Shown one piece after another: positions 1 through 20,000 of a DNA stretch of 20,000 nt (position 1 is the stretch's first letter; every line of letters starts with the position of its first letter). Source of the stretch: an uncultured virus (IMG/VR IMGVR_UViG_3300027977_000020) (taxonomy: Duplodnaviria > Heunggongvirae > Uroviricota > Caudoviricetes); the IMG/VR virus record IMGVR_UViG_3300027977_000020; one strand, written 5' to 3'. The translations under genes and the position numbers were made by a program. The notes below the pieces were generated by a model that was given only the letters and a program-made list of their open reading frames with translations, searched no databases and was not told the origin of the DNA.

Positions 1-376
1 CCTGGTAAGCCCAAGGTTGGACCTGTGAAGCCAGATTGCTCTGTTGAGTAACCTGCGGCTGTGCCACCTGGTAAGGCGACGGTTGAGCCTGGCTGGGGTA
101 CGGCGGGTTGATCTGCGTAAGCACCCGCTCCAGTGAACCCATCGCTGCTTCCCACGGATTGTTGGGGGAGGACGGCGACGTTAACTGGTTGTACTGGCTG
201 TTGGTAGTAGGCCCCGTAGTCGGTATTCCCGGCGACGGCAATTGGGCTGTAGCTGCCGAAGCTACCGCCGGGGTAGGCGTTTGGGTTACCCACTGGGGGT
301 AAGCGGTTGAGCCCTGGTCCGAGGCTACTGCCTGGGAGACCGGGCTCGGGGTCGAAGCTTGGATCTGCTGGCTCAT
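1..376 (-). CDS. Pro/Gln/Ser/Thr-rich protein overlapping the portal 3' end in another frame (possible scaffold/head protein; partial)
   Basis: ATG at 376, in-frame TAA just upstream (392-394), then 125 stop-free codons: MSQQIQASTPSPVSQAVASDQGSTAYPQWV...NNPWEAAMGSLERVLTQINPPYPSQAQPSPYQ... Confidence 0.6.
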   Translation of the reverse strand, partial: MSQQIQASTPSPVSQAVASDQGSTAYPQWVTQTPTPAVASAATAQLPSPGIPTTGPTTNSQYNQLTSPSSPNNPWEAAMGSLERVLTQINPPYPSQAQPSPYQVAQPQVTQQSNLASQVQPWAYQ

Positions 377-2105
377 AGCTACCCGAGTAGGTTAGTTCTT
401 CCGCGAGATGGTCGAAAGTTCTATAGATTAGCGGAGTGATATTCAATCTCGGATCAGCTGCAAGCGGTTGGTTAGGCGCAAGCGGATGAGGAGATTGCAA
501 CATCTGTTGTAATAATACCAGAAATTGTTGCATAGCTGACTGAGTTTGTTGAACCATACGGAAAGGGAAACCCCTCAACATTTCAGCCCGCTCAGCATCA
601 GTTTTTTCTGGAAATAAGAACTTCAACGCTTCTATACTATCAACTCCCAGCTCTTGTAGGTTACGAACAACAATAGATTTTTGGTTTACATCGTAAGCCG
701 TATCTTCATAAACATCACCTTGATACCTATAAGTAACTGTACGATCACCATCTTCTGGTAACCCAATAACCCCACGAGGTACTTTATTCTCTGCCAGGGC
801 CACCTTCATCACCTGATTTAGCTTCCCTTCAAACTTTACATTTGCAATTTGATACTTTTCAATTGCTTCAGGTGTTTGTTCTGTCGGAGGCTTTGGTTCT
901 TTTAAACCCGAAGCAGCTATAAATGACTCTCGAAAAATTAATTCTTGGTGATAAATCATCATCTCAAGGAGACGATTAAATCCATACGCAAGAAATGATT
1001 TATTTTTTCTTAATGCTGTGGCCTGAGCTCGACCCATCAAACCTTTAATTTCAGTCGCAGTGGCACCGGCTGAAATTGAAATCTCATCAACACCACCTAA
1101 TGCAGTACGTATCTCTTCTCTTAACAACAAAAGATATCTGCTCATGTCCCCGTTAACGGGGTCAGGTGTCATATAGCCCACACGGTCGGAAGGTTCTACG
1201 TTCGCAATAATTCGCGGAACACGCAGGCCACCACCCATCGAGGCGCCGAAAGGTTCACTTACTCTTGTCGACGGGCTATCGACTCCAGAAAAACCACTCT
1301 GACTGCTGATCGTAGGTCTAAAAGTTGACTGACTATCTGACGCTTCGACAAGATCACTACGTGGACGCGAACTAATTAGTGTTGGATTACCAAAAAATTC
1401 AATGTTCTTAGAAATGTTCCGTGCAAGTTGGTCGTGGAGAACAATTTGCTCCATAAAAGGATCAAATTCGCCTTCTCCCTCTGTTCCACTTGCATTTGGT
1501 TTGTTTAATACCTCGACAGCTGGTATAAAACCAAGCATGTTAGGCCTTTTTTTACTTGGAGTTAAAATTGCACCTGGTTCAAGCTCAAAACTTAATTCAC
1601 TATCAGTTTCGACCTCACTAATCTCTTCAGCTGTAATAGAAAGTCGAACGTACCGTTTATTTTGCCCGTACGCATTACTAGGTAGACCTAAAGTACTGTT
1701 TTTAACTTTATAGCTGTAGATAATGATTACTTCTTCTACTTCACCGTTTACATCGTGATAAACGCGATATTGATTTTTGTTAAAAAAGTAAATCTGGTAT
1801 TTTAACTTTGGGTCAGGGCGAAAATAAAAAAGACCAGCACCATCAATTAAGAAATTCCTGATAATCGAAGGAAATCGAATATCAATCTTATTCAGCTTTA
1901 TGACGTTGTCTAAAAACTTTGAACGACTTTTATACGTATCCTGATCACAGTAGAATGTTACACCCTTCTTAATCATAAGAAGAGTCATCTGCTGTAAATG
2001 GCTTAAAACAACCATCGTGGCCGATTGGTTGCTTCGATCCTGGGTGCGTGAGGCCTCCAGGATCTCATTAAACCGTTTTCTGGTCTCAGTTGAGCTCGCA
2101 GACAT
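1..2105 (-). CDS. Phage portal protein, SPP1 gp6-like (3' end beyond window; >=701 codons), with low-complexity Pro/Gly C-terminal extension
   Basis: Translated by hand from ATG at 2105 (MSASSTETRKRFNEILEASR...) with no stop before the window edge, which is why the ORF track omits it. Contains LGFIPAVEVLN...GEGEFDPFMEQIVLHD...FFGNPTL and ISAGATATEIKGLM, resembling SPP1-type portal segments; downstream of terL on the same strand. Confidence 0.8.
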   Translation of the reverse strand, partial: MSASSTETRKRFNEILEASRTQDRSNQSATMVVLSHLQQMTLLMIKKGVTFYCDQDTYKSRSKFLDNVIKLNKIDIRFPSIIRNFLIDGAGLFYFRPDPKLKYQIYFFNKNQYRVYHDVNGEVEEVIIIYSYKVKNSTLGLPSNAYGQNKRYVRLSITAEEISEVETDSELSFELEPGAILTPSKKRPNMLGFIPAVEVLNKPNASGTEGEGEFDPFMEQIVLHDQLARNISKNIEFFGNPTLISSRPRSDLVEASDSQSTFRPTISSQSGFSGVDSPSTRVSEPFGASMGGGLRVPRIIANVEPSDRVGYMTPDPVNGDMSRYLLLLREEIRTALGGVDEISISAGATATEIKGLMGRAQATALRKNKSFLAYGFNRLLEMMIYHQELIFRESFIAASGLKEPKPPTEQTPEAIEKYQIANVKFEGKLNQVMKVALAENKVPRGVIGLPEDGDRTVTYRYQGDVYEDTAYDVNQKSIVVRNLQELGVDSIEALKFLFPEKTDAERAEMLRGFPFRMVQQTQSAMQQFLVLLQQMLQSPHPLAPNQPLAADPRLNITPLIYRTFDHLAEELTYSGSYEPADPSFDPEPGLPGSSLGPGLNRLPPVGNPNAYPGGSFGSYSPIAVAGNTDYGAYYQQPVQPVNVAVLPQQSVGSSDGFTGAGAYADQPAVPQPGSTVALPGGTAAGYSTEQSGFTGPTLGLP

Positions 2106-2132: not shown

Positions 2133-2291
2133 TTACTTCTTGGCTGCCATCTGTTTGGCCTTACGGGCTTTTGCTAAAGCCCTTTTACGTGATTCTTCTT
2201 TGCCACGGGGTTCACCACCCTTTGATTCTTTGTCCCCTTGATTTTTCTCTTGAAACTTTTTCAAGAGCTCAGCGGGCATTTTATTAGTCAT
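2133..2291 (-). CDS. Small basic protein, 52 aa (MTNKMPAELLKKFQ...RKRALAKARKAKQMAAKK)
   Basis: Below ORF-track cutoff. ATG at 2291 overlaps the end of the upstream GT17 gene (ATGACTAA); alternative ATG at 2279; TAA at 2133-2135; fills the gap before the portal start. Confidence 0.75.
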   Translation of the reverse strand: MTNKMPAELLKKFQEKNQGDKESKGGEPRGKEESRKRALAKARKAKQMAAKK

Positions 2292-3093
2292 CTGGAAGAA
2301 GATACTTTCTGACTCTTTCCAGTGTAACCGCTTCTAGCGGTAAATTCTCCATTGGAAACGCAGTAAGCATATGATCTTCTCGACCCAACATATCTATATT
2401 GCCGGGTACTGCTTCAAATGTCTTACAGGTCTCGACAACAGTAGGCATATCGGTCTCCCAATGTGCGTAAGATTTAAGTTTTTTAAGTCTCCTTTCAGAG
2501 TCACCCATCCAACTTAAATGCCACCCAGCATCACGGTCTCCTATTACCTTACGTGTAGTCTGACGACGAACATTTGTTATAGATCCTAATGAAGCAAGTC
2601 TTCCTGCAGTGCAGATCGTTGCACAATGCCAGTGAAAAAGCTCACCAAGGGGAGTACAGAGCTGTAAATCTGCCCTCCCGTAGTGCATGGACATATCCAA
2701 ACCTAAAATTGCATCAGGATTTGCCTCAAGTTCAGTTTTTATCTGTTCAAATTTTGCTGGGTTAGGGAGTTCGTCACAGTCAGAACAAATAAAAACAGCA
2801 TTTTTTGGCATTTCCGAGAGATAAACACCAAGAGCATCGCGTTGTCCACGCTCACGGACCCAATGATCCGGTTCCTCGTCAACAGGCGGAAGTTTGACGT
2901 GGATAACCTCGATCAAATCAGCGGGTAAACCTAACTCCTTAATGGTTTCGGCACAAGTAAAAGCCTTCGGCTCTCCTCTATGAGTTCGATCCGCATCTGC
3001 AATTAAAAAACCATCGACATGATCCTTTAATAAGGAAATGCGTAATTCAAGTAACTCGCGTTCGTTAAAATAAGGAAAACAATCAATTAACAT
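2284..3093 (-). CDS. GT17-like glycosyltransferase (GnT-III/MGAT3-like), paralog 2
   Basis: DCFPYFNERELLELRI, THRGEPK, RERGQRD, SDCDE (DxD) and GWHLSW motifs typical of the family. Confidence 0.85.
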   Translation of the reverse strand: MLIDCFPYFNERELLELRISLLKDHVDGFLIADADRTHRGEPKAFTCAETIKELGLPADLIEVIHVKLPPVDEEPDHWVRERGQRDALGVYLSEMPKNAVFICSDCDELPNPAKFEQIKTELEANPDAILGLDMSMHYGRADLQLCTPLGELFHWHCATICTAGRLASLGSITNVRRQTTRKVIGDRDAGWHLSWMGDSERRLKKLKSYAHWETDMPTVVETCKTFEAVPGNIDMLGREDHMLTAFPMENLPLEAVTLERVRKYLLPDD

Positions 3094-3898
3094 TTTCAGG
3101 AAGGAGATAGGTTTTGACGCGCTCTAACTCAAATAATTTTGAGGGCAGAGCGCTTAAAGGATAAGTGGTAATTAAGTGATCGTCACGCCCAAGCATATCG
3201 AGGTTTCCCTCTTGGGGTTCAAACAGCTCACATCTGCGCTGTACGTCTGGTGTGTCCCACATATAGTACTCAGCAATAGATCTGAGTTTATTCTTTCGTC
3301 GTACACCGTCACCCATCCAACTTAGATGCCAACCAAAATCTCTTTCACCCAGATACAGATTATCTTGGCTCTCCCTCATTACGGAGAGTGTGCTGTGTTT
3401 CTTTAAAAAACCAACCGTAGAAACAAAAGCTCGTTGCCACTCATGCAGAACACCATCAGGAGTTATTAACTGCCGATCAGCGCGTCCATAGTGCATAGAC
3501 ATGCTAGCCCGCACTACTTGCTTTGAAGTTTCAGCTGCGGTTTTTAGCTTATCTAATTTAAGAGGATTGACTAGCTCATCACAGTCGGAGCAAATAAAGA
3601 ACGTTTCGTCTGAACACATATGAAGCCCAACACCTAAAGCATCGCGCTGGGCTCGTTCACGCAACCACGGATCTGGTGCTTCCTCAATAGAAGGTAACTC
3701 AACGTGTAAGACTTGAACTTTACTGTCGTCGATACCAAGTTCTTTAAGAGTATCGACGCAGGTAAAAGGCTTTTCGTCACCTCGATGCGTTCTGTTGGCA
3801 TCTGTTATCAGAAATCCGTCAACGTAATCTTCGAGAGTCCTAATACGGAGTTCTAGTAGTTCTTTCTCGTTAAAGTACGGAAAGCAATCGATAAGCAT
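3083..3898 (-). CDS. GT17-like glycosyltransferase, paralog 1
   Basis: Same motif set: DCFPYFNEKELLELRI, THRGDEK, RERAQRD, SDCDE, GWHLSWMG. Confidence 0.85.
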   Translation of the reverse strand: MLIDCFPYFNEKELLELRIRTLEDYVDGFLITDANRTHRGDEKPFTCVDTLKELGIDDSKVQVLHVELPSIEEAPDPWLRERAQRDALGVGLHMCSDETFFICSDCDELVNPLKLDKLKTAAETSKQVVRASMSMHYGRADRQLITPDGVLHEWQRAFVSTVGFLKKHSTLSVMRESQDNLYLGERDFGWHLSWMGDGVRRKNKLRSIAEYYMWDTPDVQRRCELFEPQEGNLDMLGRDDHLITTYPLSALPSKLFELERVKTYLLPENVN

Positions 3899-3929
3899 AG
3901 ATCGCCTGAGCGGGTGCCACTATAGTAGC

Positions 3930-4214
3930 TTAGCTCTGTCCTAGATATTTAGCTGCACGACGCTTAGCTCTTGTCAAAAGATTTACATCTGCGTTTGTAT
4001 TTTGATCAAATTCTGAAGAATTTGTATCGGCAGAATATCCACCGGGATTCAGAGATGGCTGTGGCTGACCTGTTAGTGACGTTTCATCTTCCGCCGACAT
4101 TTCAGCAAATGCTGAATCAGCCGATTGATTGGCTCGACGCTGCGCATCAGCGGCGTTCATTTGCTCTTGATAGTTTTTTGAAAACCCAAAAGCAGCATTG
4201 TTAAAAGAGTTCAT
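3930..4214 (-). CDS. Hypothetical protein (94 aa; acidic/polar with basic C-terminus)
   Basis: ATG coupled to upstream stop (TGATG at 4212-4216); no recognisable motif. Confidence 0.65.
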   Translation of the reverse strand: MNSFNNAAFGFSKNYQEQMNAADAQRRANQSADSAFAEMSAEDETSLTGQPQPSLNPGGYSADTNSSEFDQNTNADVNLLTRAKRRAAKYLGQS

Positions 4215-4495
4215 CAGTAGAAAACGATAACATTGTGAACAGTACCACTATGAATAGCTGTTATAGACATAGGTACAATTGAGTCAGCATTCAAACGCAC
4301 TAATGGGATCTGCTGGCCGGGTGTATCAGTCATCTCAACTGTTAGGTAATGATCTTGACCAGCATCAGTCATAAAATAAAATCCACGAGCGGCAGAAAAA
4401 CGTTTTAGCCCACTTGCAGGCACATAATGAAAACCACTTGCATAAGGTAAGGTCGAAGATTGCCCATATACAGATCCAAAAGCTCTAACGTCCAT
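4214..4495 (-). CDS. Small beta-rich virion protein, possibly head-spike base family (RcGTA Rcc01079-like)
   Basis: Likely start MDVRAFGS at 4495. Pattern ARGFY...LTVEM...IVPMSITAIHSGT..VIVFY resembles the recalled TRALY...L.V.M...LPV.V..V..TGT...IV.L pattern of spike-base proteins; unverified. Confidence 0.45.
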   Translation of the reverse strand: MDVRAFGSVYGQSSTLPYASGFHYVPASGLKRFSAARGFYFMTDAGQDHYLTVEMTDTPGQQIPLVRLNADSIVPMSITAIHSGTVHNVIVFY

Positions 4496-4517
4496 AACAA
4501 CAAAAGTTTTTCTAAGT

Positions 4518-4799
4518 TTAACCGTATTTTTCACAAATAATTATTAAACGTCTCAAATACCACGCGCATTTTTTTAAGTCCTCAACACCGTTTTTATGCT
4601 CAGTTCTCCACAAGTACTTTAAACAGGCTCCGCGACAGTACGCTTTAAACCCTTCAACACCTAAAGCAGACTCAATGGCATCAATACACTCGACAGCACC
4701 TTGTGTGTAGTGCGATGGACTGTTGACTGGATCTTCTGAAGTTTTTAGAGGTTCCATAGAATCAAATTCATTGAATAAGAAGGCATCGGATTGGGTCAC
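4518..4799 (-). CDS. DUF3310 protein (T7 gp1.7 nucleotide kinase / SaV-like)
   Basis: DPVNSPSHY..G.VECIDAI...G...KYLWR...KNGVEDLKKC.WYL signature. Confidence 0.9.
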   Translation of the reverse strand: MTQSDAFLFNEFDSMEPLKTSEDPVNSPSHYTQGAVECIDAIESALGVEGFKAYCRGACLKYLWRTEHKNGVEDLKKCAWYLRRLIIICEKYG

Positions 4800-4802
4800 A
4801 AA

Positions 4803-5678
4803 CTACACGCTGAACATCTGAGTTATATCTAACAAAGATAAATTTTCTGCAGACAAAACTTTACTGTATTTTGTATCTAGGTGCTCAAGCAGCCCGCAGG
4901 GGGCTATGCAGAGTTTACCTCGTTCTTTAATCAACGGCACAACACGGCGGTGCTCCTGTTCAAAAGCAAGTTTTTCAAAAGCAAGTCCCATAGAACTTCT
5001 ATCAGCAATCGGCCAACAACGAAATTTCGTCAAGTTAAAACTTTTTATAGGATCGCAACTGTCAGAAACGATGTATTCATCAGCCATATCCTGATCTAGT
5101 ATCATCATTCCCATATAAGGATTACCTAGAGACACAAAACAAACAAAATCATCGTAAGGCGTTATGAAAGTTTGAGCTTTATACGGTCTTTCGCCCCACA
5201 CGGATTTTGTAGGTCCGTTTAACTCCCATCTTCGGTAGTTATCAAAGGGTATGGATCGTTCATTAAAACGCTCAAATCGACAAAAACCAGGTTCTAGGTT
5301 TAACTCCTTTAACTTATCTTTCCAGGATATCCAATAGTCAAAATGTTTATGCGTGAAAAGCATATCATTTTCTGTATATACATAAAAATCATGCGTTTTT
5401 GCTTGAACGGCTTGTATCAAAAGAGGTTTGTGCGCCCAAGTTAAACTAAAACCTGTGTACTCAGGTTCCGCAACAACAATATTTAAACCGCAGGCACCTA
5501 AATTAGGTTCGAGCAGGTCAAAAACTATATCTTTATCCTGCTTGTGTTCAAAATCAATAAAAATGTAGAAGTCTTTGTGACCTGGAATTTTACTATAAGC
5601 TCGTAACGTTTCCAGAAGCACGTCAAACCGCTCTAGAGGATTATGTGCTGTAACAGCAACGAAAAATTTGTTTGACAT
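4803..5678 (-). CDS. Hypothetical protein, possible GT-A-fold glycosyltransferase
   Basis: N-terminal beta-strand FFVAVTAH, FYIFID, YVYTENDML (DxD-like position) and late LLEHL. Coupled to terL stop (TAATG). ORF is solid; function uncertain. Confidence 0.45.
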   Translation of the reverse strand: MSNKFFVAVTAHNPLERFDVLLETLRAYSKIPGHKDFYIFIDFEHKQDKDIVFDLLEPNLGACGLNIVVAEPEYTGFSLTWAHKPLLIQAVQAKTHDFYVYTENDMLFTHKHFDYWISWKDKLKELNLEPGFCRFERFNERSIPFDNYRRWELNGPTKSVWGERPYKAQTFITPYDDFVCFVSLGNPYMGMMILDQDMADEYIVSDSCDPIKSFNLTKFRCWPIADRSSMGLAFEKLAFEQEHRRVVPLIKERGKLCIAPCGLLEHLDTKYSKVLSAENLSLLDITQMFSV

Positions 5679-7201
5679 TAGTACTCCATTTCAAAGTTAC
5701 CGCGACGTTGAAGAAAACAAACTAAGTGAGTATATGCGTCTAGTAAGTCGTCATGCGATGTAGCACCTATGTTAACTAGTTGGTCAAACAATAGGTCAAA
5801 TTTTCGATACCGATTAAATATCACTTTTTTATTTTCTAATAGACCTAATGTTCCCCTAAACCGAGACACCTTATCACCACGGAAACCTTTGACCTCGTGG
5901 ATGTGTATGTTACCTAGTCCTTTATCAGTCAACATAATGCGTCGAAGATCTGCAGCAAGCGAAGCTTGGTAAGCAACTGACTCAACAACCAATGTACAAG
6001 TTGAGTAAGTCGGAAAAAACTCTCCTGCCGCATCTTCTGTAAGTATGCCCCATTCGACCAACATCTTACACAGTAAATCTATCTTCTCAAGGTTTCCTAT
6101 AGTCCGAATCTGATGTGCATCAATAATATAATACTTATCTTTTAATCTACCGCCCAAGACGAACGCAGTATAGTCTGATGTCTCACTCTTACTGGCCGAT
6201 AAATCCACACCGACTGCAAGTGAATCAAACTCAGTTACAACATCACCTTTCACAAGTAAGTCTGGCGATAAGACTAGATCCGAAGTCATCACCGGTTGCT
6301 GTTGGTACTGATAAGCGAAAGCAACGGGATCAAGTTCCTTCTGACCTAATAAATACTCAACACTCCACTGCTCGGGCCAATAACTTTCAGGTTCACTCTG
6401 GTCGTCATAAGTCAAAGCTTCTTGCGTGACTTGTTTCCACCCGCGATCTGGTACAAACATTGTTTTATGAATGTCTAGCGGATGAAACCTAGTTCCTAAA
6501 CAGATGGCTCTGCCTCCTTCAAAAATAATAGGTGCAATAACTGAAGACCAGTTATTGTTCATTTCTTCACGGATCACAGGATTTCGAATGTCCGCACTGC
6601 TTTTGATGGGGTCATCTATGAAGCACAGATGAGCACGTTTTGATGTGATTGAACCTCTAAGTCCTGCAGCGCGTAGTGTGAATTCTTCGTCACCTACTCG
6701 CGAAATGCCCGCGTAGTCAAAATCAATCGACCAACCCACATCGCTCTGCATACCTGGTTTGAGCCGACACGTGGGAAATACTTTTTTAAACTCAGTTGAA
6801 TCAACAATTTGTTTAATAATTCGACTTTTAGGTATCGCAGTGTTGATGTTGTAAGAAATGTAAATAATCTGAAGCGGCATTTTTGCTGCTGTATGGCGTC
6901 CTATACACCATGCAGTGAACATATTGAGCACGGTAGACTTGGCCGAGCCTCTCGGGGATAGTATATCAAGGTTTTGTCCTGCGATATCTAATAAGTACTT
7001 ATTACTCTGACCTGTGATCAAGTGTGAGTACCACTCGAGCATGTGCTTTGCTGGTGGTTTATCAAGCAACGTACAGAACGTTTGAAAGTCGTTAGCTGCT
7101 CGCGTAAAAATAGTATCCAACACTGGAGTGTCGCTATCAAACGCTTTTGCCGCTCGCATCTGTAGAGCGCGACGATAAGCAAAAGTTTCACGACTAGGCA
7201 T
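5678..7201 (-). CDS. terL: Terminase large subunit
   Basis: Walker A PRGSAKST, Walker B LCFIDDP, coupling motif LGTRFH, nuclease motifs VGVDLS..SDYTA and HDDLLDA. Probable start MPSRETF at 7201 rather than TTG at 7246. Confidence 0.95.
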   Translation of the reverse strand: MPSRETFAYRRALQMRAAKAFDSDTPVLDTIFTRAANDFQTFCTLLDKPPAKHMLEWYSHLITGQSNKYLLDIAGQNLDILSPRGSAKSTVLNMFTAWCIGRHTAAKMPLQIIYISYNINTAIPKSRIIKQIVDSTEFKKVFPTCRLKPGMQSDVGWSIDFDYAGISRVGDEEFTLRAAGLRGSITSKRAHLCFIDDPIKSSADIRNPVIREEMNNNWSSVIAPIIFEGGRAICLGTRFHPLDIHKTMFVPDRGWKQVTQEALTYDDQSEPESYWPEQWSVEYLLGQKELDPVAFAYQYQQQPVMTSDLVLSPDLLVKGDVVTEFDSLAVGVDLSASKSETSDYTAFVLGGRLKDKYYIIDAHQIRTIGNLEKIDLLCKMLVEWGILTEDAAGEFFPTYSTCTLVVESVAYQASLAADLRRIMLTDKGLGNIHIHEVKGFRGDKVSRFRGTLGLLENKKVIFNRYRKFDLLFDQLVNIGATSHDDLLDAYTHLVCFLQRRGNFEMEY

Positions 7202-7246
7202 AAAAGTAAAACTGTCTGTATACTGATAGCAAGATTCTAACCCCAA
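7202..7246. promoter_or_regulatory. Compact divergent promoter region between terL and GT4
   Basis: 45-bp gap with TATACT on + (7219-7224) and gtTAGAAT on - (7234-7239). Confidence 0.45.
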
Positions 7247-8419
7247 ATGGCGAAAATTCTGTGGTACGGTGATATCCTTTCAAATACTGGGTTTGCTAGA
7301 GTTACACACAGTGTTCTAGAGCATTTACAGAAAAACAACGAGATTGTTGCTGTAGGAATAAATTATACGGGTGATCCTCATGATCTTCCTTTCAAGGTCT
7401 ATCCTGCCGCAGCTAAAAACCCACAGGATCGATTTGGTATCGGACGACTACCTGAAATCATCACTGCTGAAAAACCAGATTTTATAATTTGCTTAAATGA
7501 CATTTGGATTGTTAACCAAGTATGGGAGCGCGTACACTTACTGCAAGCACAGTGTAAGTTTAAATTTATAGCTTACTTCCCACTGGACTCTCAGTGGTAT
7601 ACCGAAAGCCATATGAGGTTCGTTAAGGATTGGGATTTTGCAATCACGTTTACAATCGAACAAGCGCAAAGGGTAATGCAGTTAGGTGTTAAACCTAAGA
7701 TGCTCGGCGTAATCCCACACGGTGTGGAGACATCCAAGTTCTATCCATTAGATAGAACACAGGTTCGTCAACAACTTCAATTACCAGAAGATAAATTCAT
7801 TGTTCTAAACGCCAATCGAAACCAACCAAGGAAACAAATAGACCTGACCATAAAAGCTTTTGCAGAATTTGCGATAGATAAAGAAGATACAATGCTCTAT
7901 TTGCATATGAGCGAGAAGGATCTTGGGTGGGACATCCGTGCCTTGTTTGAAACCGAAATGAAACGACGAGGACTTAAATCAGACCAAAGGCTACTAATGA
8001 CGGCAACCAATATTGATTACTGCAATGCGCCGCCAGACGACGTACTTAATTTAATTTACAATGCTTGTGATATCGGAATCAATACAGCTAACGGAGAAGG
8101 CTGGGGCTTAGTTCCGTTTGAACACGCAGCTTGTAAAAAGCCGCAGGTACTACCAAACCACACGTCATTTGCCGAAGTGTGGAAGAACAAAGCATTACTA
8201 GCTGATGTAGCAGCGTGGATATACGATAAAGACCTAGGTGTCGAACGAGGTATTGTAGATATTAAAGACATGGCCAACAAGATGGGGGACTTGTACAGAG
8301 ATAAAGAATTTGCAGAAAAAGTAGCAAACGACTGTTTTGAAGTAACAACCAACCCTTCGTACCGTTGGGACAAAATTGCTGAAGGTTTCCAGAAAGCAAT
8401 GGAGGAAATTTCGAAATGA
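7247..8419 (+). CDS. GT4 (GT-B fold) glycosyltransferase
   Basis: TGFARV, IPHGV, NRNQPRK and YNACDIGINTANGEGWGLVPFEHAAC (E-x7-E motif). Confidence 0.92.
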   Translation: MAKILWYGDILSNTGFARVTHSVLEHLQKNNEIVAVGINYTGDPHDLPFKVYPAAAKNPQDRFGIGRLPEIITAEKPDFIICLNDIWIVNQVWERVHLLQAQCKFKFIAYFPLDSQWYTESHMRFVKDWDFAITFTIEQAQRVMQLGVKPKMLGVIPHGVETSKFYPLDRTQVRQQLQLPEDKFIVLNANRNQPRKQIDLTIKAFAEFAIDKEDTMLYLHMSEKDLGWDIRALFETEMKRRGLKSDQRLLMTATNIDYCNAPPDDVLNLIYNACDIGINTANGEGWGLVPFEHAACKKPQVLPNHTSFAEVWKNKALLADVAAWIYDKDLGVERGIVDIKDMANKMGDLYRDKEFAEKVANDCFEVTTNPSYRWDKIAEGFQKAMEEISK

Positions 8420-13756: not shown

Positions 13757-14527
13757 TTAGAACCCCAGGTATTTACGGCGGACGAAGTCTAGATCATAAG
13801 TAACGAAATCTACGGGAAACTCCGGGATATTAAACGGATTTTTGTAGGTTTCGCCGTCAACGTGAGCTTGCCACGCCTCTCCCCATTTGGTGTGTAGATA
13901 TCTCTTGTTTAACTCATGAGCAACATGAATAGCATGCTCTAATCGGGGTTCTGATCGCCAAGTTTGCGAACCATCGGAGTAGTCCTTTCGTCTGCCGTGG
14001 TAATAGTCAGTATCTAAAGACAGTACTCGTTTAACATCGTCATGAATAAAACGCATACCATAATCCATATCCTCACAGTACCCTGGGTATAAGTTCTCAT
14101 CAAATAATCCATATCTCTGCACCATCCAATCTTTTAATAGAAAAATATCCCACCCACCGCCTTTGCCGTGAACTATACCGACTTCGTCATCTTGTGCTTT
14201 CGTATTCATTTCTTCGAGAAACCCAGGTTCATACATCACGTCGTGATTAGAAATAACCCAGTACTTCGCTGTTATGAAAGATTTAATGATTAAATTCCAT
14301 GCACCGGAACATCCAATGTTTGAAGGCAGATGCGTAACATGAACTTTTTTTACAAACGGGTTAGAACAATTACGGATATTGTCAACTGCTTCTGTAATCT
14401 GACCACGACCGTTATTGTTAAAGACAACAAAATTTTCGACTGGGTAGTCGATACTCATAAACAAACGGTGTAACCAGTAAGGGTTGTTGACAATAGCCGT
14501 GCCTAGTACGGGGATCGAGTCGCTCAT
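13757..14527 (-). CDS. GT2-like (GT-A) glycosyltransferase
   Basis: VVFNN, NIGCSGAWN, ISNHDV and GLFDENLYPGYCEDMDY motifs; ATG at 14527. Confidence 0.8.
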   Translation of the reverse strand: MSDSIPVLGTAIVNNPYWLHRLFMSIDYPVENFVVFNNNGRGQITEAVDNIRNCSNPFVKKVHVTHLPSNIGCSGAWNLIIKSFITAKYWVISNHDVMYEPGFLEEMNTKAQDDEVGIVHGKGGGWDIFLLKDWMVQRYGLFDENLYPGYCEDMDYGMRFIHDDVKRVLSLDTDYYHGRRKDYSDGSQTWRSEPRLEHAIHVAHELNKRYLHTKWGEAWQAHVDGETYKNPFNIPEFPVDFVTYDLDFVRRKYLGF

Positions 14528-14640
14528 CAACAGGTCGTCTGTCCCAACATGTTAACACAATAGCTTTACAAAAACACCGGGCACTCAGAGTAAAAAATTA
14601 GAAAATAAATTAGAATTTAGTGTACTTCGCAACAAGTCTC

Positions 14641-15910: not shown

Positions 15911-16624
15911 ATGGCCACGAGTGCTAAGCCTTCCTTTAAAGAACTCATGTCTCAAATGAAACAAGAGACAACGGAAGCGCCTCGTATCAAGATAGAAGGG
16001 AACAAGAAGAAACTAGATGATCGATATACTTTCAATCAGGGCTGGTATGACGCTTTGTTGAACACCGACATGGTGCTCTCAACCAACAACGAGGCGGCAG
16101 GCTTAAAAATTGACCCACTTGAGCAGCGCCAGATTGTTGAAATTGGTGTCTACGAAGGAGCTTCAACTGTTTTCTGGTCTGATTTTTATCTAGATCACCC
16201 AGATTCGCGTTTGATTTCGATTGATCCTTTTACAGGAAGTGCGGAACACCACGCGGAACCAGAAAAATACCCAGAATTAGCGAATATTGAGCTCACAGCA
16301 AGGTGTAACGCCGCCAAATCTGCCAACGCTGCAAAAATTGAAATAATCAAAGCCTATAGCTGGGGAATTTTTCCTGAATTAATCCGTCGATTTGGACAAG
16401 ATCGTTGGATTGACCTACTTTATATAGATGGAGCACACGACCCAATCTCAGTTGCTCGTGATACGGCACTGTATTTACCTATGGTAAAACCCGGTGGCGT
16501 TTGTATTTTCGACGATTTTGCTCACCCCGAGGTAAAACAAGGTGTTGAAGGTACGCTAGCGGCAACAAATTGCATTGAGTTTGCACTCTTTACAGGTTGG
16601 CAGCTTGCTTGCAAAGTCAAATGA
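15911..16624 (+). CDS. Class I SAM-dependent methyltransferase (Methyltransf_24-like)
   Basis: IVEIGVYEGAS, ISIDPF, DLLYIDGAH and VKPGGVCIFDD motifs. Confidence 0.9.
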   Translation: MATSAKPSFKELMSQMKQETTEAPRIKIEGNKKKLDDRYTFNQGWYDALLNTDMVLSTNNEAAGLKIDPLEQRQIVEIGVYEGASTVFWSDFYLDHPDSRLISIDPFTGSAEHHAEPEKYPELANIELTARCNAAKSANAAKIEIIKAYSWGIFPELIRRFGQDRWIDLLYIDGAHDPISVARDTALYLPMVKPGGVCIFDDFAHPEVKQGVEGTLAATNCIEFALFTGWQLACKVK

Positions 16625-19345: not shown

Positions 19346-19837
19346 TTATATAGCCATACAGCGTTTTCCCTGAGGCTCAAGTTCCCAGCCTTGACCAGAA
19401 TAAAATTCAACTGCTTTCGCGTCAGCAAAGAGATTTACGTTTTCAACTTGCATTTGTTTTAGCCGCGTGGTCAAAATATCCAGCAAACCTTTACCTAAAC
19501 CATTGTGCTGATACAACGGGTGAATTACTAAATCCCAAATAGTTGCAGTCAGTACCCCGTCTCCCGTACAACGAGCAAACCCAATCAAATGCGGCGCCCA
19601 AATGTTGTGACGCCATAGGCCAAGGACCAATAACGAATTATTTAAAGCTTTTTTTGTACGATTTCGAGGTCTGCGACACCAACCCACGGTGTCAGCAAGC
19701 TGTTCTAGCTCAATAGGACTAACTTCGCGGTCAAAACTCGCAATTATCCGCAGTTTTCTGCTGTTGCTCGGGAATTCTTGCCACTGGGTGCCGTAAAGTC
19801 GACTAAACACGGCTGTTACTATGTTGGCAGAACACAT
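19346..19837 (-). CDS. ycf52: GNAT N-acetyltransferase, cyanobacterial Ycf52/SNAT/NSI-like
   Basis: ELEQL..VGW.RRP...KKAL..SLL..GLWRH, LIGFARCTGDGV..ATIWD..IHP.YQ..GLGK, LFAD...FY...GW.LEP; acetyl-CoA motif Q-x-x-G-x-G intact; likely start MCSANI at 19837. Confidence 0.85.
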   Translation of the reverse strand: MCSANIVTAVFSRLYGTQWQEFPSNSRKLRIIASFDREVSPIELEQLADTVGWCRRPRNRTKKALNNSLLVLGLWRHNIWAPHLIGFARCTGDGVLTATIWDLVIHPLYQHNGLGKGLLDILTTRLKQMQVENVNLFADAKAVEFYSGQGWELEPQGKRCMAI

Positions 19838-20000
19838 TTTAGCCTCAAAATACCCCGCTGTTACCAAAAACCTTCTCGCCACCGTCGTCATACAAGCTTG
19901 TATATTAAAAAAAAGGCAGCTTTTACACATTGCGGCAGGTTTGTGATACATAGTGGCGCGGAATTCTTTATACTTTCTCGCCCCATGACAGGAAGAACAA

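Follow-up and report, generated by a model that had tools for sequence, protein, structure and literature searches.

A portal-like gene and a putative scaffold gene share a long out-of-frame overlap in an aquatic phage lineage

The end of a portal-like gene and the beginning of the gene that follows it, here termed ORF2, are very probably encoded by the same 497 nt in a lake cyanophage with a dsDNA genome of ~80 kb, the portal tail being read in one frame and a separately initiated ORF2 in the other, as judged from comparison of the sequences. The window is the whole 20,000-nt stretch of DNA from this phage that was analyzed, and its left edge cuts both genes (Table 1). ORF2 is read in the +1 frame of the portal-like gene, whose final 40 codons and stop lie beyond the left edge. 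Two contigs that are 100% identical, L002 and L003, supply the full arrangement of a 741-aa portal-like protein and a 305-aa ORF2 (3353..5578 and 5082..5999 in L002); extension to both stops, as proposed in a preceding sequence-only reading, gives the shared length of 497 nt.

Table 1. Features of the overlapping gene pair in window coordinates.
Feature	Position	Strand	Remarks
Portal-like gene	3..2105	-	ORF; 701 of 741 codons in window, left end open
ORF2 (scaffold-like gene)	2..376	-	ORF from ATG; first 125 of 305 codons in window
Dual-coded stretch (probable)	3..376	-	374 of the 497 shared nt; portal residues 577-701 and ORF2 residues 1-125
ORF2 start codon ATG	374..376	-	last two bases of portal Tyr577 (TAT) and first base of Glu578
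TAA in ORF2 frame	392..394	-	15 nt ahead of ORF2 ATG ('tta' on the strand shown)
NPWE helix of ORF2 (predicted)	113..160	-	ORF2 residues 73-88; sole predicted structured element inside the overlap
Portal codons ~521-576 with low synonymous variation	377..545	-	directly upstream of ORF2; includes TGGTATTAT at 512-520

The primary observations of the sequence-only reading hold. It described two minus-strand frames open across positions 1-376 to the window edge, with a TAA just before the ATG of the second; the ORF listing agrees on both frames, and the TAA is found in the frame of ORF2. The five stops that it placed in the third frame are all recovered exactly, at 1, 49, 88, 112, and 193 nt from the ORF2 ATG (window positions 375, 327, 288, 264, and 183). 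The GC contrast between the tail and the core is likewise reproduced, at 0.60-0.62 over positions 1-400 versus 0.305 at 1701-1900, and the GC content of the portal tail is 0.618 versus 0.411 for the portal core. Both products are of low complexity, with a portal tail rich in G/P/A/S and an ORF2 rich in Q/S/P/A/T. The double open frame exceeds chance. After shuffling of the portal codons, the +1 frame remains open in 0.6-0.8% of trials for the source phage and in 0-8% for other long-tailed relatives, and the portal frame remains open in 0.07-12% of trials after shuffling of the ORF2 codons.

The relatives examined represent at least four deep clades. Single-protein context scans for P0016 and P0054 found nothing, and alignment-based scans succeeded in their place. 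Both frames are open in 263 of the 264 evaluable loci among 284 fetched, which bears out the expectation that homologous phages would keep both. The arrangement is present in 72/72 evaluable loci of clade 1, the clade of the source phage (80 fetched; overlap 488-515 nt), 77/77 of the S-EIVl-like clade 2 (80 fetched; overlap 554-692 nt in the 71 tabulated), 76/77 of clade 3 (80 fetched; overlap 455-527 nt), and 38/38 from a fourth search (44 fetched). The exception is L237, in which an apparent indel has swapped the two frames. The sequence-only reading had named homologues with a portal stop near codon 575, or without the second frame, as evidence against dual coding, and none occurs among the 264 evaluable loci. 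The portal-like proteins of these clades have diverged to ~30% identity, and the two genes appear to have shared DNA since before the lineage split into clades that are now ~30-45% identical. A single word-limited search with the portal-like protein returned over 2,000 clusters of proteins, defined at 90% identity. Dual coding is less certain in a short-portal clade, because shuffling alone leaves the +1 frame open in 58-80% of trials and the ORF2 of this clade has no detectable homology to other ORF2 proteins.

Both frames carry a signature of purifying selection in sequence comparisons within clades. Third-position diversity was compared by Mann-Whitney test for 60, 63, and 62 unique sequences of clades 1, 2, and 3, respectively. 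Synonymous variation was expected to be suppressed in both frames, and in the overlap of all three clades it is reduced to 0.34-0.65 of the outside level, with inside/outside ratios (portal/ORF2 frame) of 0.45/0.43, 0.34/0.64, and 0.61/0.65 (all p < 2e-9). In clade 1, diversity within the overlap is 0.235 in the portal frame and 0.212 in the ORF2 frame versus 0.517 and 0.498 outside, and synonymous differences are back to ~0.45 directly past the portal stop. An OLGenie-style count yields dNN/dSN of 0.31, 0.68, and 0.63 and dNN/dNS of 0.38, 0.27, and 0.54 in the three clades, with ≤0.05% of bootstraps reaching 1 for either ratio. Values of dNN/dNS below 1 could also arise if only the portal frame were under selection, given the stronger constraint on second than on first codon positions, and are not decisive for ORF2 by themselves; therefore, the case for ORF2 rests on the lost portal-synonymous variation and on amino-acid homology.

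The same data bear on the possibility that only ORF2 is functional and that the portal tail is translated but functionless, its frame being open as a by-product of a GC-rich ORF2. Consistent with this possibility, the portal tail is much less conserved across clades than the overlapped part of ORF2 (mean column identity 0.33 vs 0.47), ORF2-synonymous sites of clade 2 keep 64% of the outside diversity, and ORF2-codon shuffles leave the portal frame open in up to 12% of trials. Selection on ORF2 only, however, predicts a dNN/dSN of 1 or more, because the ratio compares first with second positions of ORF2, and the values of 0.31-0.68 fall below this. ORF2-synonymous sites also lose 35-57% of their diversity within the overlap in all three clades, the portal frame is retained across nearly all loci down to ~30% identity, and the end of the portal tail is net positive in every clade (mean charge of the last 25 residues +2.0 to +7.3). 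A functionless tail is thus unlikely.

Evidence for the overlapped part of ORF2 also comes from protein comparisons. Homology across clades is detected by hmmsearch, with E values of 5e-14 to 5e-55 in clade 3 and of 7e-47 to 5e-75 in clade 4. The overlapped N-terminus is alignable across clades; M1, N73, P74, W75, and A78 do not vary among 56 sequences drawn from three clades, and the counterpart of the NPWE motif in clade 4 is NPYKEAF. The only cultured relative in the phage collection, Synechococcus phage S-EIVl (KJ410740), contains the same gene pair in the same +1 relation. Its portal-like protein is 46.8% identical to that of the source phage and its ORF2 33% identical (BLASTP E 5e-24, full length). 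The deposited annotation of S-EIVl (AHV82224, 767 aa; AHV82225, 133 aa) shows no overlap, as ORF2 was started 192 codons too late and only its last 133 codons were retained; once the full ORF2 is read, the overlap is 554 nt.

The S-EIVl record, in which the annotated start follows the portal stop, is in line with a reading in which only the portal frame codes across the shared stretch, ORF2 starts later (at Met79 or past the portal stop), and the open frame upstream is a compositional accident. Gene callers commonly shorten such genes, and many public calls are forms of 219-232 aa, versus ~305 aa for the full protein, that cover 74% of the ORF2 query; some callers start at Met79. The chance openness of the +1 frame in a single genome also reaches 8%. 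Nevertheless, this reading is very unlikely. Met79 is replaced by F or Y in other clades, the start annotated in S-EIVl removes a conserved FG.EAP..LN.Y motif, and M1 and the NPW motif are invariant in the 56 sequences noted above. Diversity at portal-synonymous sites falls by 39-66%, and does so exactly where the genes overlap; the +1 frame is open in every clade, in contrast with the remaining four frames, each of which has 6-11 stops within the 497 nt in L002.

The ATG of ORF2 sits in a conserved portal tyrosine codon. In other clades, the same portal motif supplies the ATG from a different tyrosine codon, located four codons farther upstream (TAT-GCA or TAT-GGA), and the S-EIVl start occupies this position. 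The ORF2 frame opens 15 nt before the ATG in 70 of 72 clade-1 loci and 66 nt before it in the other two, L008 and L011. Shine-Dalgarno-like sequences vary among the clades. An AAGGAG box, 7 nt upstream of the ATG, is present in 40 of 43 unique clade-2 upstream regions, including that of S-EIVl, and GAGG precedes the ATG in 15 of 16 from clade 4; the box is weak (GGGT) in the clade of the source phage and absent in 49 of 53 unique clade-3 regions. The upstream regions of clade 1 harbor TGGTATTAT, an extended -10-like sequence, in 36 of 37 unique cases, and none from other clades does. Read from the alignment by eye, it is perhaps an internal promoter element of clade 1. A sigma-70 promoter scan of the minus strand gave no candidate ahead of ORF2, and the RNA upstream of ORF2 shows no stable fold (z -1.14) and no Rfam match.

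The decrease in third-position diversity is blurred at its upstream edge, since it starts ~50 codons ahead of ORF2 in two clades. The last 50 portal codons before ORF2 have values of 0.229 and 0.245 in clades 1 and 2 versus 0.517 and 0.488 for the rest of the portal gene; clade 3 shows no such drop (0.527 vs 0.585).

The start sites also inform a second interpretation offered in the sequence-only reading, a frameshifted portal fusion. Programmed frameshifting could join the frames either by a +1 shift, giving a portal-ORF2 fusion, or by a -1 shift, attaching the tail of the portal to the head of ORF2; supplying the fusion would then be the purpose of the overlap. The geometry of the two frames suits either shift, and a minor fusion product beside the separate proteins is compatible with the data. 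As the reason for the overlap, frameshifting is highly improbable. No canonical slippery heptamer common to the clades was found; one occurs in the ORF2 frame in 0/71, 46/67, and 0/66 loci of clades 1, 2, and 3, and CCCAAAC occurs in the portal frame in 36/71 and 59/67 loci but in only 1/66 in clade 3. A -1 shift from the portal frame enters a frame full of stops. Moreover, ORF2 has its own conserved ATG directly after an in-frame stop, with Shine-Dalgarno boxes in clades 2 and 4 that would be needless for a product made only by a shift. An assembly or sequencing error that removed a portal stop or introduced an indel is a practically negligible explanation, the swapped frames of L237 notwithstanding, as the same structure recurs in hundreds of contigs from many samples and in a cultured isolate genome, and an independent DNA run covers the stretch in full and contains neither insertions nor deletions. 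RNA-library contigs span only parts of the stretch and cannot establish that it is transcribed, from which strand, or where transcripts start.

The names 'portal' and 'scaffold' are putative, as they derive from weak profile matches, gene order, and one low-confidence model. The portal-like protein matches phrog_20475, 'virion structural protein' (E 2.8e-163), and, over residues 49-244 only, phrog_64, 'portal protein' (E 6.5e-7), which is also matched by 15 of 24 distant relatives. Pfam SPP1_portal is matched by two of these 24 (best E 2e-4), none at the gathering score. A portal cluster of the ESM Atlas scores 0.96 at rank 11, and the portal profile matches a portal in the PDB at E 0.49. Alignment with N4 gp59 by hhalign gave no match, and a tblastn search of the phage collection, with E values up to 1 allowed, returned only S-EIVl and two weak unannotated matches. 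In gene order, the large terminase gene (TerL) lies upstream at 5678..7246, the portal gene is located between TerL and the ORF2 and capsid genes, and a major head protein is encoded downstream of the pair (L002 8583..9632; phrog_1357, E 1.3e-23). The C-terminal extension of the P22 portal is a helical barrel. The portal-like protein resembles it in having, past a conserved core, extra C-terminal length that would lie inside the capsid, and differs in that this tail is a low-complexity G/P/S/A-rich sequence with a basic end.

The ORF2 sequence has no match in Pfam, PHROG, NCBIfam, PDB sequences, or the ESM Atlas, and hhalign against N4 gp57 found none. An AlphaFold2 model has a mean pLDDT of 50.7, with helices at residues 159-222 and 265-302 (pLDDT 73-87), the latter region being predicted as a C-terminal helix-turn-helix, and a further helix at 74-88 (pLDDT ~60); residues 6-71 and 91-157 have a pLDDT below 50. 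A structure search with this model yielded generic long-helix matches only (Z at most 5.3). From the predicted fold and from the location of the gene between the portal and major capsid genes, we infer that ORF2 may be a scaffolding protein. The scaffolding protein of P22, gp8, binds coat protein through a C-terminal helix-turn-helix. ORF2 shares with scaffolds of this type its gene position and, in the low-confidence model, an elongated, helical shape with a C-terminal helix-turn-helix. In contrast, it has no sequence or fold match to any scaffold, and a Q/S/P-rich head, predicted to be disordered and encoded within the portal gene, makes up half of it.

In the preferred reading of two proteins encoded by one stretch, the portal-like gene would run past its folded core (~residue 576) as a 165-codon G/P/A/S-rich tail with a Lys/Arg-rich end, and ORF2 would start at the boundary between core and tail. 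Read one base out of frame, the same 497 nt would specify a mostly disordered N-terminal half of ORF2 with the short NPWE helix; past the portal stop, ORF2 would go on as a long helix and the helix-turn-helix. ORF2 would be made by its own initiation at the internal ATG, in clade 1 perhaps with an internal promoter, and not by frameshifting. The two disordered segments may be able to accommodate two coding constraints at once, as overlapping viral genes usually do. Inside the capsid, the portal tail could act as a flexible tether whose basic end contacts DNA or assembly partners. The interpretation in the sequence-only reading therefore stands in part: two real coding frames probably share the DNA, and neither the frameshift fusion nor the direction of tail gain finds support. 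The proposal that the portal acquired its tail through an extension across the next gene is not supported, as both tail and overlap are present in every clade sampled, to ~30% portal identity, and codon usage is uninformative on which frame is older. RSCU correlations with non-overlap genes are near zero for both frames (0.06/-0.04, 0.08/0.10, and 0.29/0.09).

Long out-of-frame overlaps are a textbook feature of tiny RNA and ssDNA viruses. In the spanin genes of phage lambda, Rz1 is embedded in the +1 frame of Rz. Like Rz/Rz1, the pair described here belongs to a tailed dsDNA phage and overlaps at length, out of frame and on one strand, and its two products would both function in one process. 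In contrast, Rz and Rz1 are lysis genes, one wholly inside the other, with a shorter shared stretch, whereas the present genes are putative head-assembly genes that share ~500-690 nt end to start, with both shared parts putatively disordered. According to excerpts of PMC8903798, long overlaps are rare in tailed dsDNA phages, in which genes usually overlap by a few bases, and DNA-virus overlaps are typically short, with a median of 15.6 nt overall and 14 nt for +1. The present overlap is unusually long and old for a tailed phage. Disorder-promoting residues are overrepresented in the proteins of overlapping viral genes, and disorder has been proposed to ease the double constraint (Rancurel et al. 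2009; Willis and Masel 2018, via excerpts of PMC8227390). Like the overprinted pairs in those excerpts, both products here are of low complexity and ORF2 is predicted to be disordered; unlike them, the pair belongs to a dsDNA genome of ~80 kb and its overlap is old, with neither frame callable as de novo, whereas those data sets are drawn mainly from small RNA and ssDNA viruses with one clearly young frame.

In a very abundant lineage of aquatic phages, two putative core genes for head assembly thus share 500-690 nt and provide a large natural data set on two proteins evolving on one DNA stretch, in a lineage whose only cultured member is mis-annotated. A literature search on portal/scaffold overlap found no paper describing it, the S-EIV1 genome paper being outside the reach of the search. 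The arrangement raises a testable question, namely what the long tail of the portal and the head of the putative scaffold, both disordered, do in capsid assembly. It is possible, though doubtful, that the overlap is functional and not just tolerated: the portal tail and the ORF2 head would bind each other and nucleate the procapsid at the portal, the shared bases would make both be inherited and changed as a unit, and an internal promoter or start would set the large excess of scaffold over portal. If true, two assembly proteins of a tailed phage would be genetically coupled in a new way.

Interleaved constraint, in which a conserved motif of one frame lies opposite a variable linker of the other, was considered and rejected, as the two frames show a weak positive correlation in per-codon conservation (rho +0.19). 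Matching the terminal motif of the portal with a regular expression gave inconsistent counts (24/54, 10/59, 2/57, 0/7, and 17/18) and was not used as evidence. Inside the overlap, a peptide of the xDL...PG(L/I)...LF type recurs in examples from several clades.

The stretch in which the tail of a portal-like gene is shared with the head of a second, scaffold-like ORF (ORF2) is a real, old, and selected dual-coding region, the interest of which lies mainly in its length and age and in the genes that share it. The sequence-only reading described two minus-strand frames open at the left end of the window, and the ORF listing bears this out, with both ORFs running off the edge. Its finer details also hold: the TAA at 392-394 ends the ORF2 frame 15 nt ahead of the ATG, the minus-strand stops at 183, 264, 288, 327, and 375 are precisely those of the third frame, and the GC content is 0.60-0.62 across 1-400 versus 0.305 near 1800. 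The ends of both ORFs were located by leftward extension on L002 and L003, two IMG/VR contigs that are identical in sequence to the left end of the window and extend past it. The two ORFs have 497 nt in common on L002, with ORF2 in the +1 frame, so that the first codon position of ORF2 is the second position of the portal frame.

Coordinates of the overlapping ORFs and neighboring features
Feature	Sequence	Position	Strand	Basis or remark
Portal-like ORF, 701 codons	window	3..2105	minus	ORF listing; off left edge
ORF2, 125 codons, ATG start	window	2..376	minus	ORF listing; off left edge
Portal-like ORF, 741 aa	L002	3353..5578		
ORF2, 305 aa	L002	5082..5999		
ORF2 of S-EIVl	L001	6748-7725		325 codons
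Invariant stretch CTGGTATTATTA	window	486-530	minus	inside portal gene
TGGTATTAT	window	512-520	minus	~140 nt before ORF2 ATG
120-aa ORF	L002	6197-6559	minus (locus)	phrog_2359 (holin), weak, E 9e-4
Capsid gene region with insertion	L002	7517-8650		insertion ~1 kb
Rfam Intron_gpI	L002	7608-8578		whole model, 35 bits, E 6.3e-7
LAGLIDADG homing endonuclease ORF	L002	7745-8542		PF03161, E 6.4e-13
52-codon Lys/Glu-rich ORF	window	2133-2291	minus	
Glycosyltransferase family 17	window	2284-3093	minus	PF04724, E 5e-11
Glycosyltransferase family 17, tandem paralogue	window	3083-3898	minus	PF04724, E 1.8e-12
GT1/GT4-like gene	window	7247-8419	plus	
GT2 gene	window	13757-14530	minus	
Methyltransferase gene	window	15911-16624	plus	
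GNAT acetyltransferase gene	window	19346-19951	minus	

The long ORF is named portal-like from its sequence matches and gene order. It matches phrog_20475, 'virion structural protein' (E 2.8e-163), and more weakly phrog_64, 'portal protein' (E 6.5e-7, residues 49-244); among 24 distant relatives, 15 match phrog_64 and two match Pfam SPP1_portal. A feature search of the ESM Atlas places a portal cluster at rank 11 (score 0.96), and in gene order the ORF follows the large terminase gene and precedes that of the major head protein (phrog_1357). For ORF2, none of the databases searched gave a family match. Its AlphaFold2 model is of low confidence (mean pLDDT 50.7, with residues 6-71 and 91-157 below 50) and contains a short helix at 74-88, a long helix at 159-222, and a C-terminal helix-turn-helix at 265-302 (pLDDT 73-87); a structure search with this model returned generic long-helix matches only (Z ≤5.3). 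Position and modeled architecture suggest a scaffolding protein.

High GC helps to keep a second frame open but does not explain openness that recurs in every clade, because shuffled sequences seldom stay open. When the portal codons are shuffled, 0.6-0.8% of trials with this phage keep the +1 frame open, versus 0-8% with other long-tailed relatives; the short-portal clade is the exception, as its +1 frame would stay open in 58-80% of shuffles. Shuffling of ORF2 codons leaves the portal frame open in 0.07-12%. The four other frames of the 497 nt on L002 contain 6-11 stops. The stretch was also checked for artefacts, and an independent DNA run from another study (X13) spans the full 1,501 bases without indels. 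Parts of the overlap and ORF2 are covered by contigs of three RNA libraries (two studies), which indicates presence in those libraries rather than transcription. The contigs of two RNA-library runs and of one DNA run share a start at L002 5077-5078, 4-5 nt ahead of the ORF2 ATG. A break in the assembly graph where the strains are invariant probably accounts for it; contigs cannot show transcript ends.

Homologues were examined for retention of both frames, counting loci where the portal stop could be evaluated and leaving out those that run off the contig. Both frames are open in 263 of 264 evaluable loci, many of them near-duplicates (60, 63, and 62 unique sequences in the three large clades).

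Retention of both frames and third-position diversity (outside overlap, within overlap, ratio) by clade
Clade	Fetched	Off contig	Evaluable	Both open	Overlap (nt)	ORF2 (aa)	Portal frame	ORF2 frame
1, portal 80-100% identical to that of the window	80	8	72	72/72	488-515	303-320	0.517, 0.235, 0.45	0.498, 0.212, 0.43
2, S-EIVl-like, ~45% identical	80	3	77	77/77	554-692 (71 tabulated)	314-347	0.488, 0.167, 0.34	0.438, 0.279, 0.64
3, diverse	80	3	77	76/77	455-527 (ATG, GTG, or TTG starts counted)		0.585, 0.357, 0.61	0.585, 0.382, 0.65
Fourth search, short-portal seeds	44	6	38	38/38				

The fourth search comprises two groups: seven short-portal loci, whose portals measure 565-604 aa and whose overlaps are 266-341 nt long, and 31 loci with overlaps of 419-503 nt. 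In one clade-3 relative, L237, the portal and ORF2 reading frames change places soon after the ORF2 start (~4200-4400), which fits a one-base indel, whether a sequencing error or a defunct genome lies behind it. S-EIVl, the only cultured relative, carries a portal-like CDS of 767 aa and a +1 ORF overlapping it by 554 nt. GenBank annotates only the last 133 of the 325 codons of this ORF, a start that cuts off the conserved FG.EAP..LN.Y motif and hides the overlap.

Synonymous variation is suppressed in both frames, as third-position diversity in the overlap falls to 0.34-0.65 of that outside in three clades (Mann-Whitney p <2e-9 for every comparison). Synonymous differences among same-residue pairs in 15-codon windows are ~0.5 outside the overlap versus 0.02-0.40 inside, returning to ~0.45 right after the portal stop. 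An OLGenie-style count (own implementation, 40 sequences per clade, bootstrapped) gives dNN/dSN of 0.31, 0.68, and 0.63 for the portal frame and dNN/dNS of 0.38, 0.27, and 0.54 for the ORF2 frame in the three clades, with at most 0.05% of bootstraps reaching 1. The portal-frame ratio is conservative, because under selection on ORF2 alone the comparison of ORF2 first with second positions would give at least 1. The ORF2-frame ratio below 1 could arise from portal selection alone, so that the support for ORF2 comes from the lost portal-synonymous variation and from protein homology. ORF2 proteins of different clades align from end to end (BLASTP against S-EIVl, E 5e-24; hmmsearch, E down to 5e-55 in clade 3 and 5e-75 in clade 4), and 56 sequences share M1, N73, P74, W75, and A78 without exception. 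Portal tails align poorly, that of this phage matching S-EIVl in a GSADLA...PG.LA..F stretch only; mean column identity across clades is 0.47 for the ORF2 part versus 0.33 for the portal tail. A similar terminal peptide, xDL...PG(L/I)...LF, occurs in examples from several clades and in distant representatives, and the last 25 residues of the tail are net positive in all clades.

The ORF2 ATG is formed by a Tyr codon (TAT) and the following G within E-L-x-Y-x-G-x-Y, a conserved portal motif located where the core ends. The first Tyr is used in clades 2, 3, and 4 and the short-portal clade, and the second, 12 nt downstream, in the clade of the window. A stop 3-15 nt upstream ends the ORF2 frame in nearly all loci. 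Upstream of the ATG, clade 2 has AAGGAG at 7 nt (40/43 unique regions), clade 4 has GAGG (15/16), and clade 1 has GGGT only; 49 of 53 unique clade-3 regions have no AAGGAG/GAGG-like word. As to a frameshifted portal fusion, raised in the sequence-only reading, no slippery heptamer common to the clades was found, and a -1 shift out of the portal frame enters a frame full of stops. Together with an ATG of its own after a stop, these features point to separate initiation, the simplest reading of the sequence being that the portal-like and scaffold-like proteins are each made from their own start. A minor frameshift product may be made as well.

Synonymous variation already starts to fall ~50 codons ahead of ORF2 in clades 1 and 2 (third-position diversity 0.229 and 0.245), and in clade 3 there is no drop (0.527). 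The invariant stretch CTGGTATTATTA lies in this part of the window, and TGGTATTAT is carried by 36 of 37 unique clade-1 sequences and is absent from the other clades; it resembles an extended -10 element and is missing from the list of a consensus promoter scan. A putative internal promoter would make biological sense for the scaffold and capsid genes with their abundant products. The stretch before ORF2 has no stable RNA fold and no Rfam match.

The proposal that the portal gained its tail by extending over the next gene is not supported. Every clade sampled has both tail and overlap, including those with portals only ~30% identical, and codon usage favors neither frame as older; overprinting is thus claimed for neither gene. 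In short portals the overlap shrinks together with the tail. The nearest known tailed-phage precedent is lambda Rz/Rz1. No description of the portal/ORF2 overlap was found in the literature searched, which did not include the S-EIV1 genome paper. PMC8903798 reports a median overlap length of 15.6 nt in DNA viruses; for +1 overlaps the median is 14 nt. The enrichment of disorder in overlapping viral proteins reported in PMC8227390 fits both products here, and roles of the two disordered segments are presumptive.

Beyond the left edge of the window, the major capsid gene of the same phage is split by an insertion containing a homing endonuclease ORF; the Intron_gpI match there is below the gathering score of 50. 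Among 51 clade-1 loci with both exon markers, 42 are uninterrupted and nine carry insertions of three size classes. ORF2 and the capsid gene flank the 120-aa ORF, which is encoded on the opposite strand. The tandem glycosyltransferase family 17 pair is placed between the terminase and portal genes, and the 52-codon ORF lies immediately upstream of the portal start.
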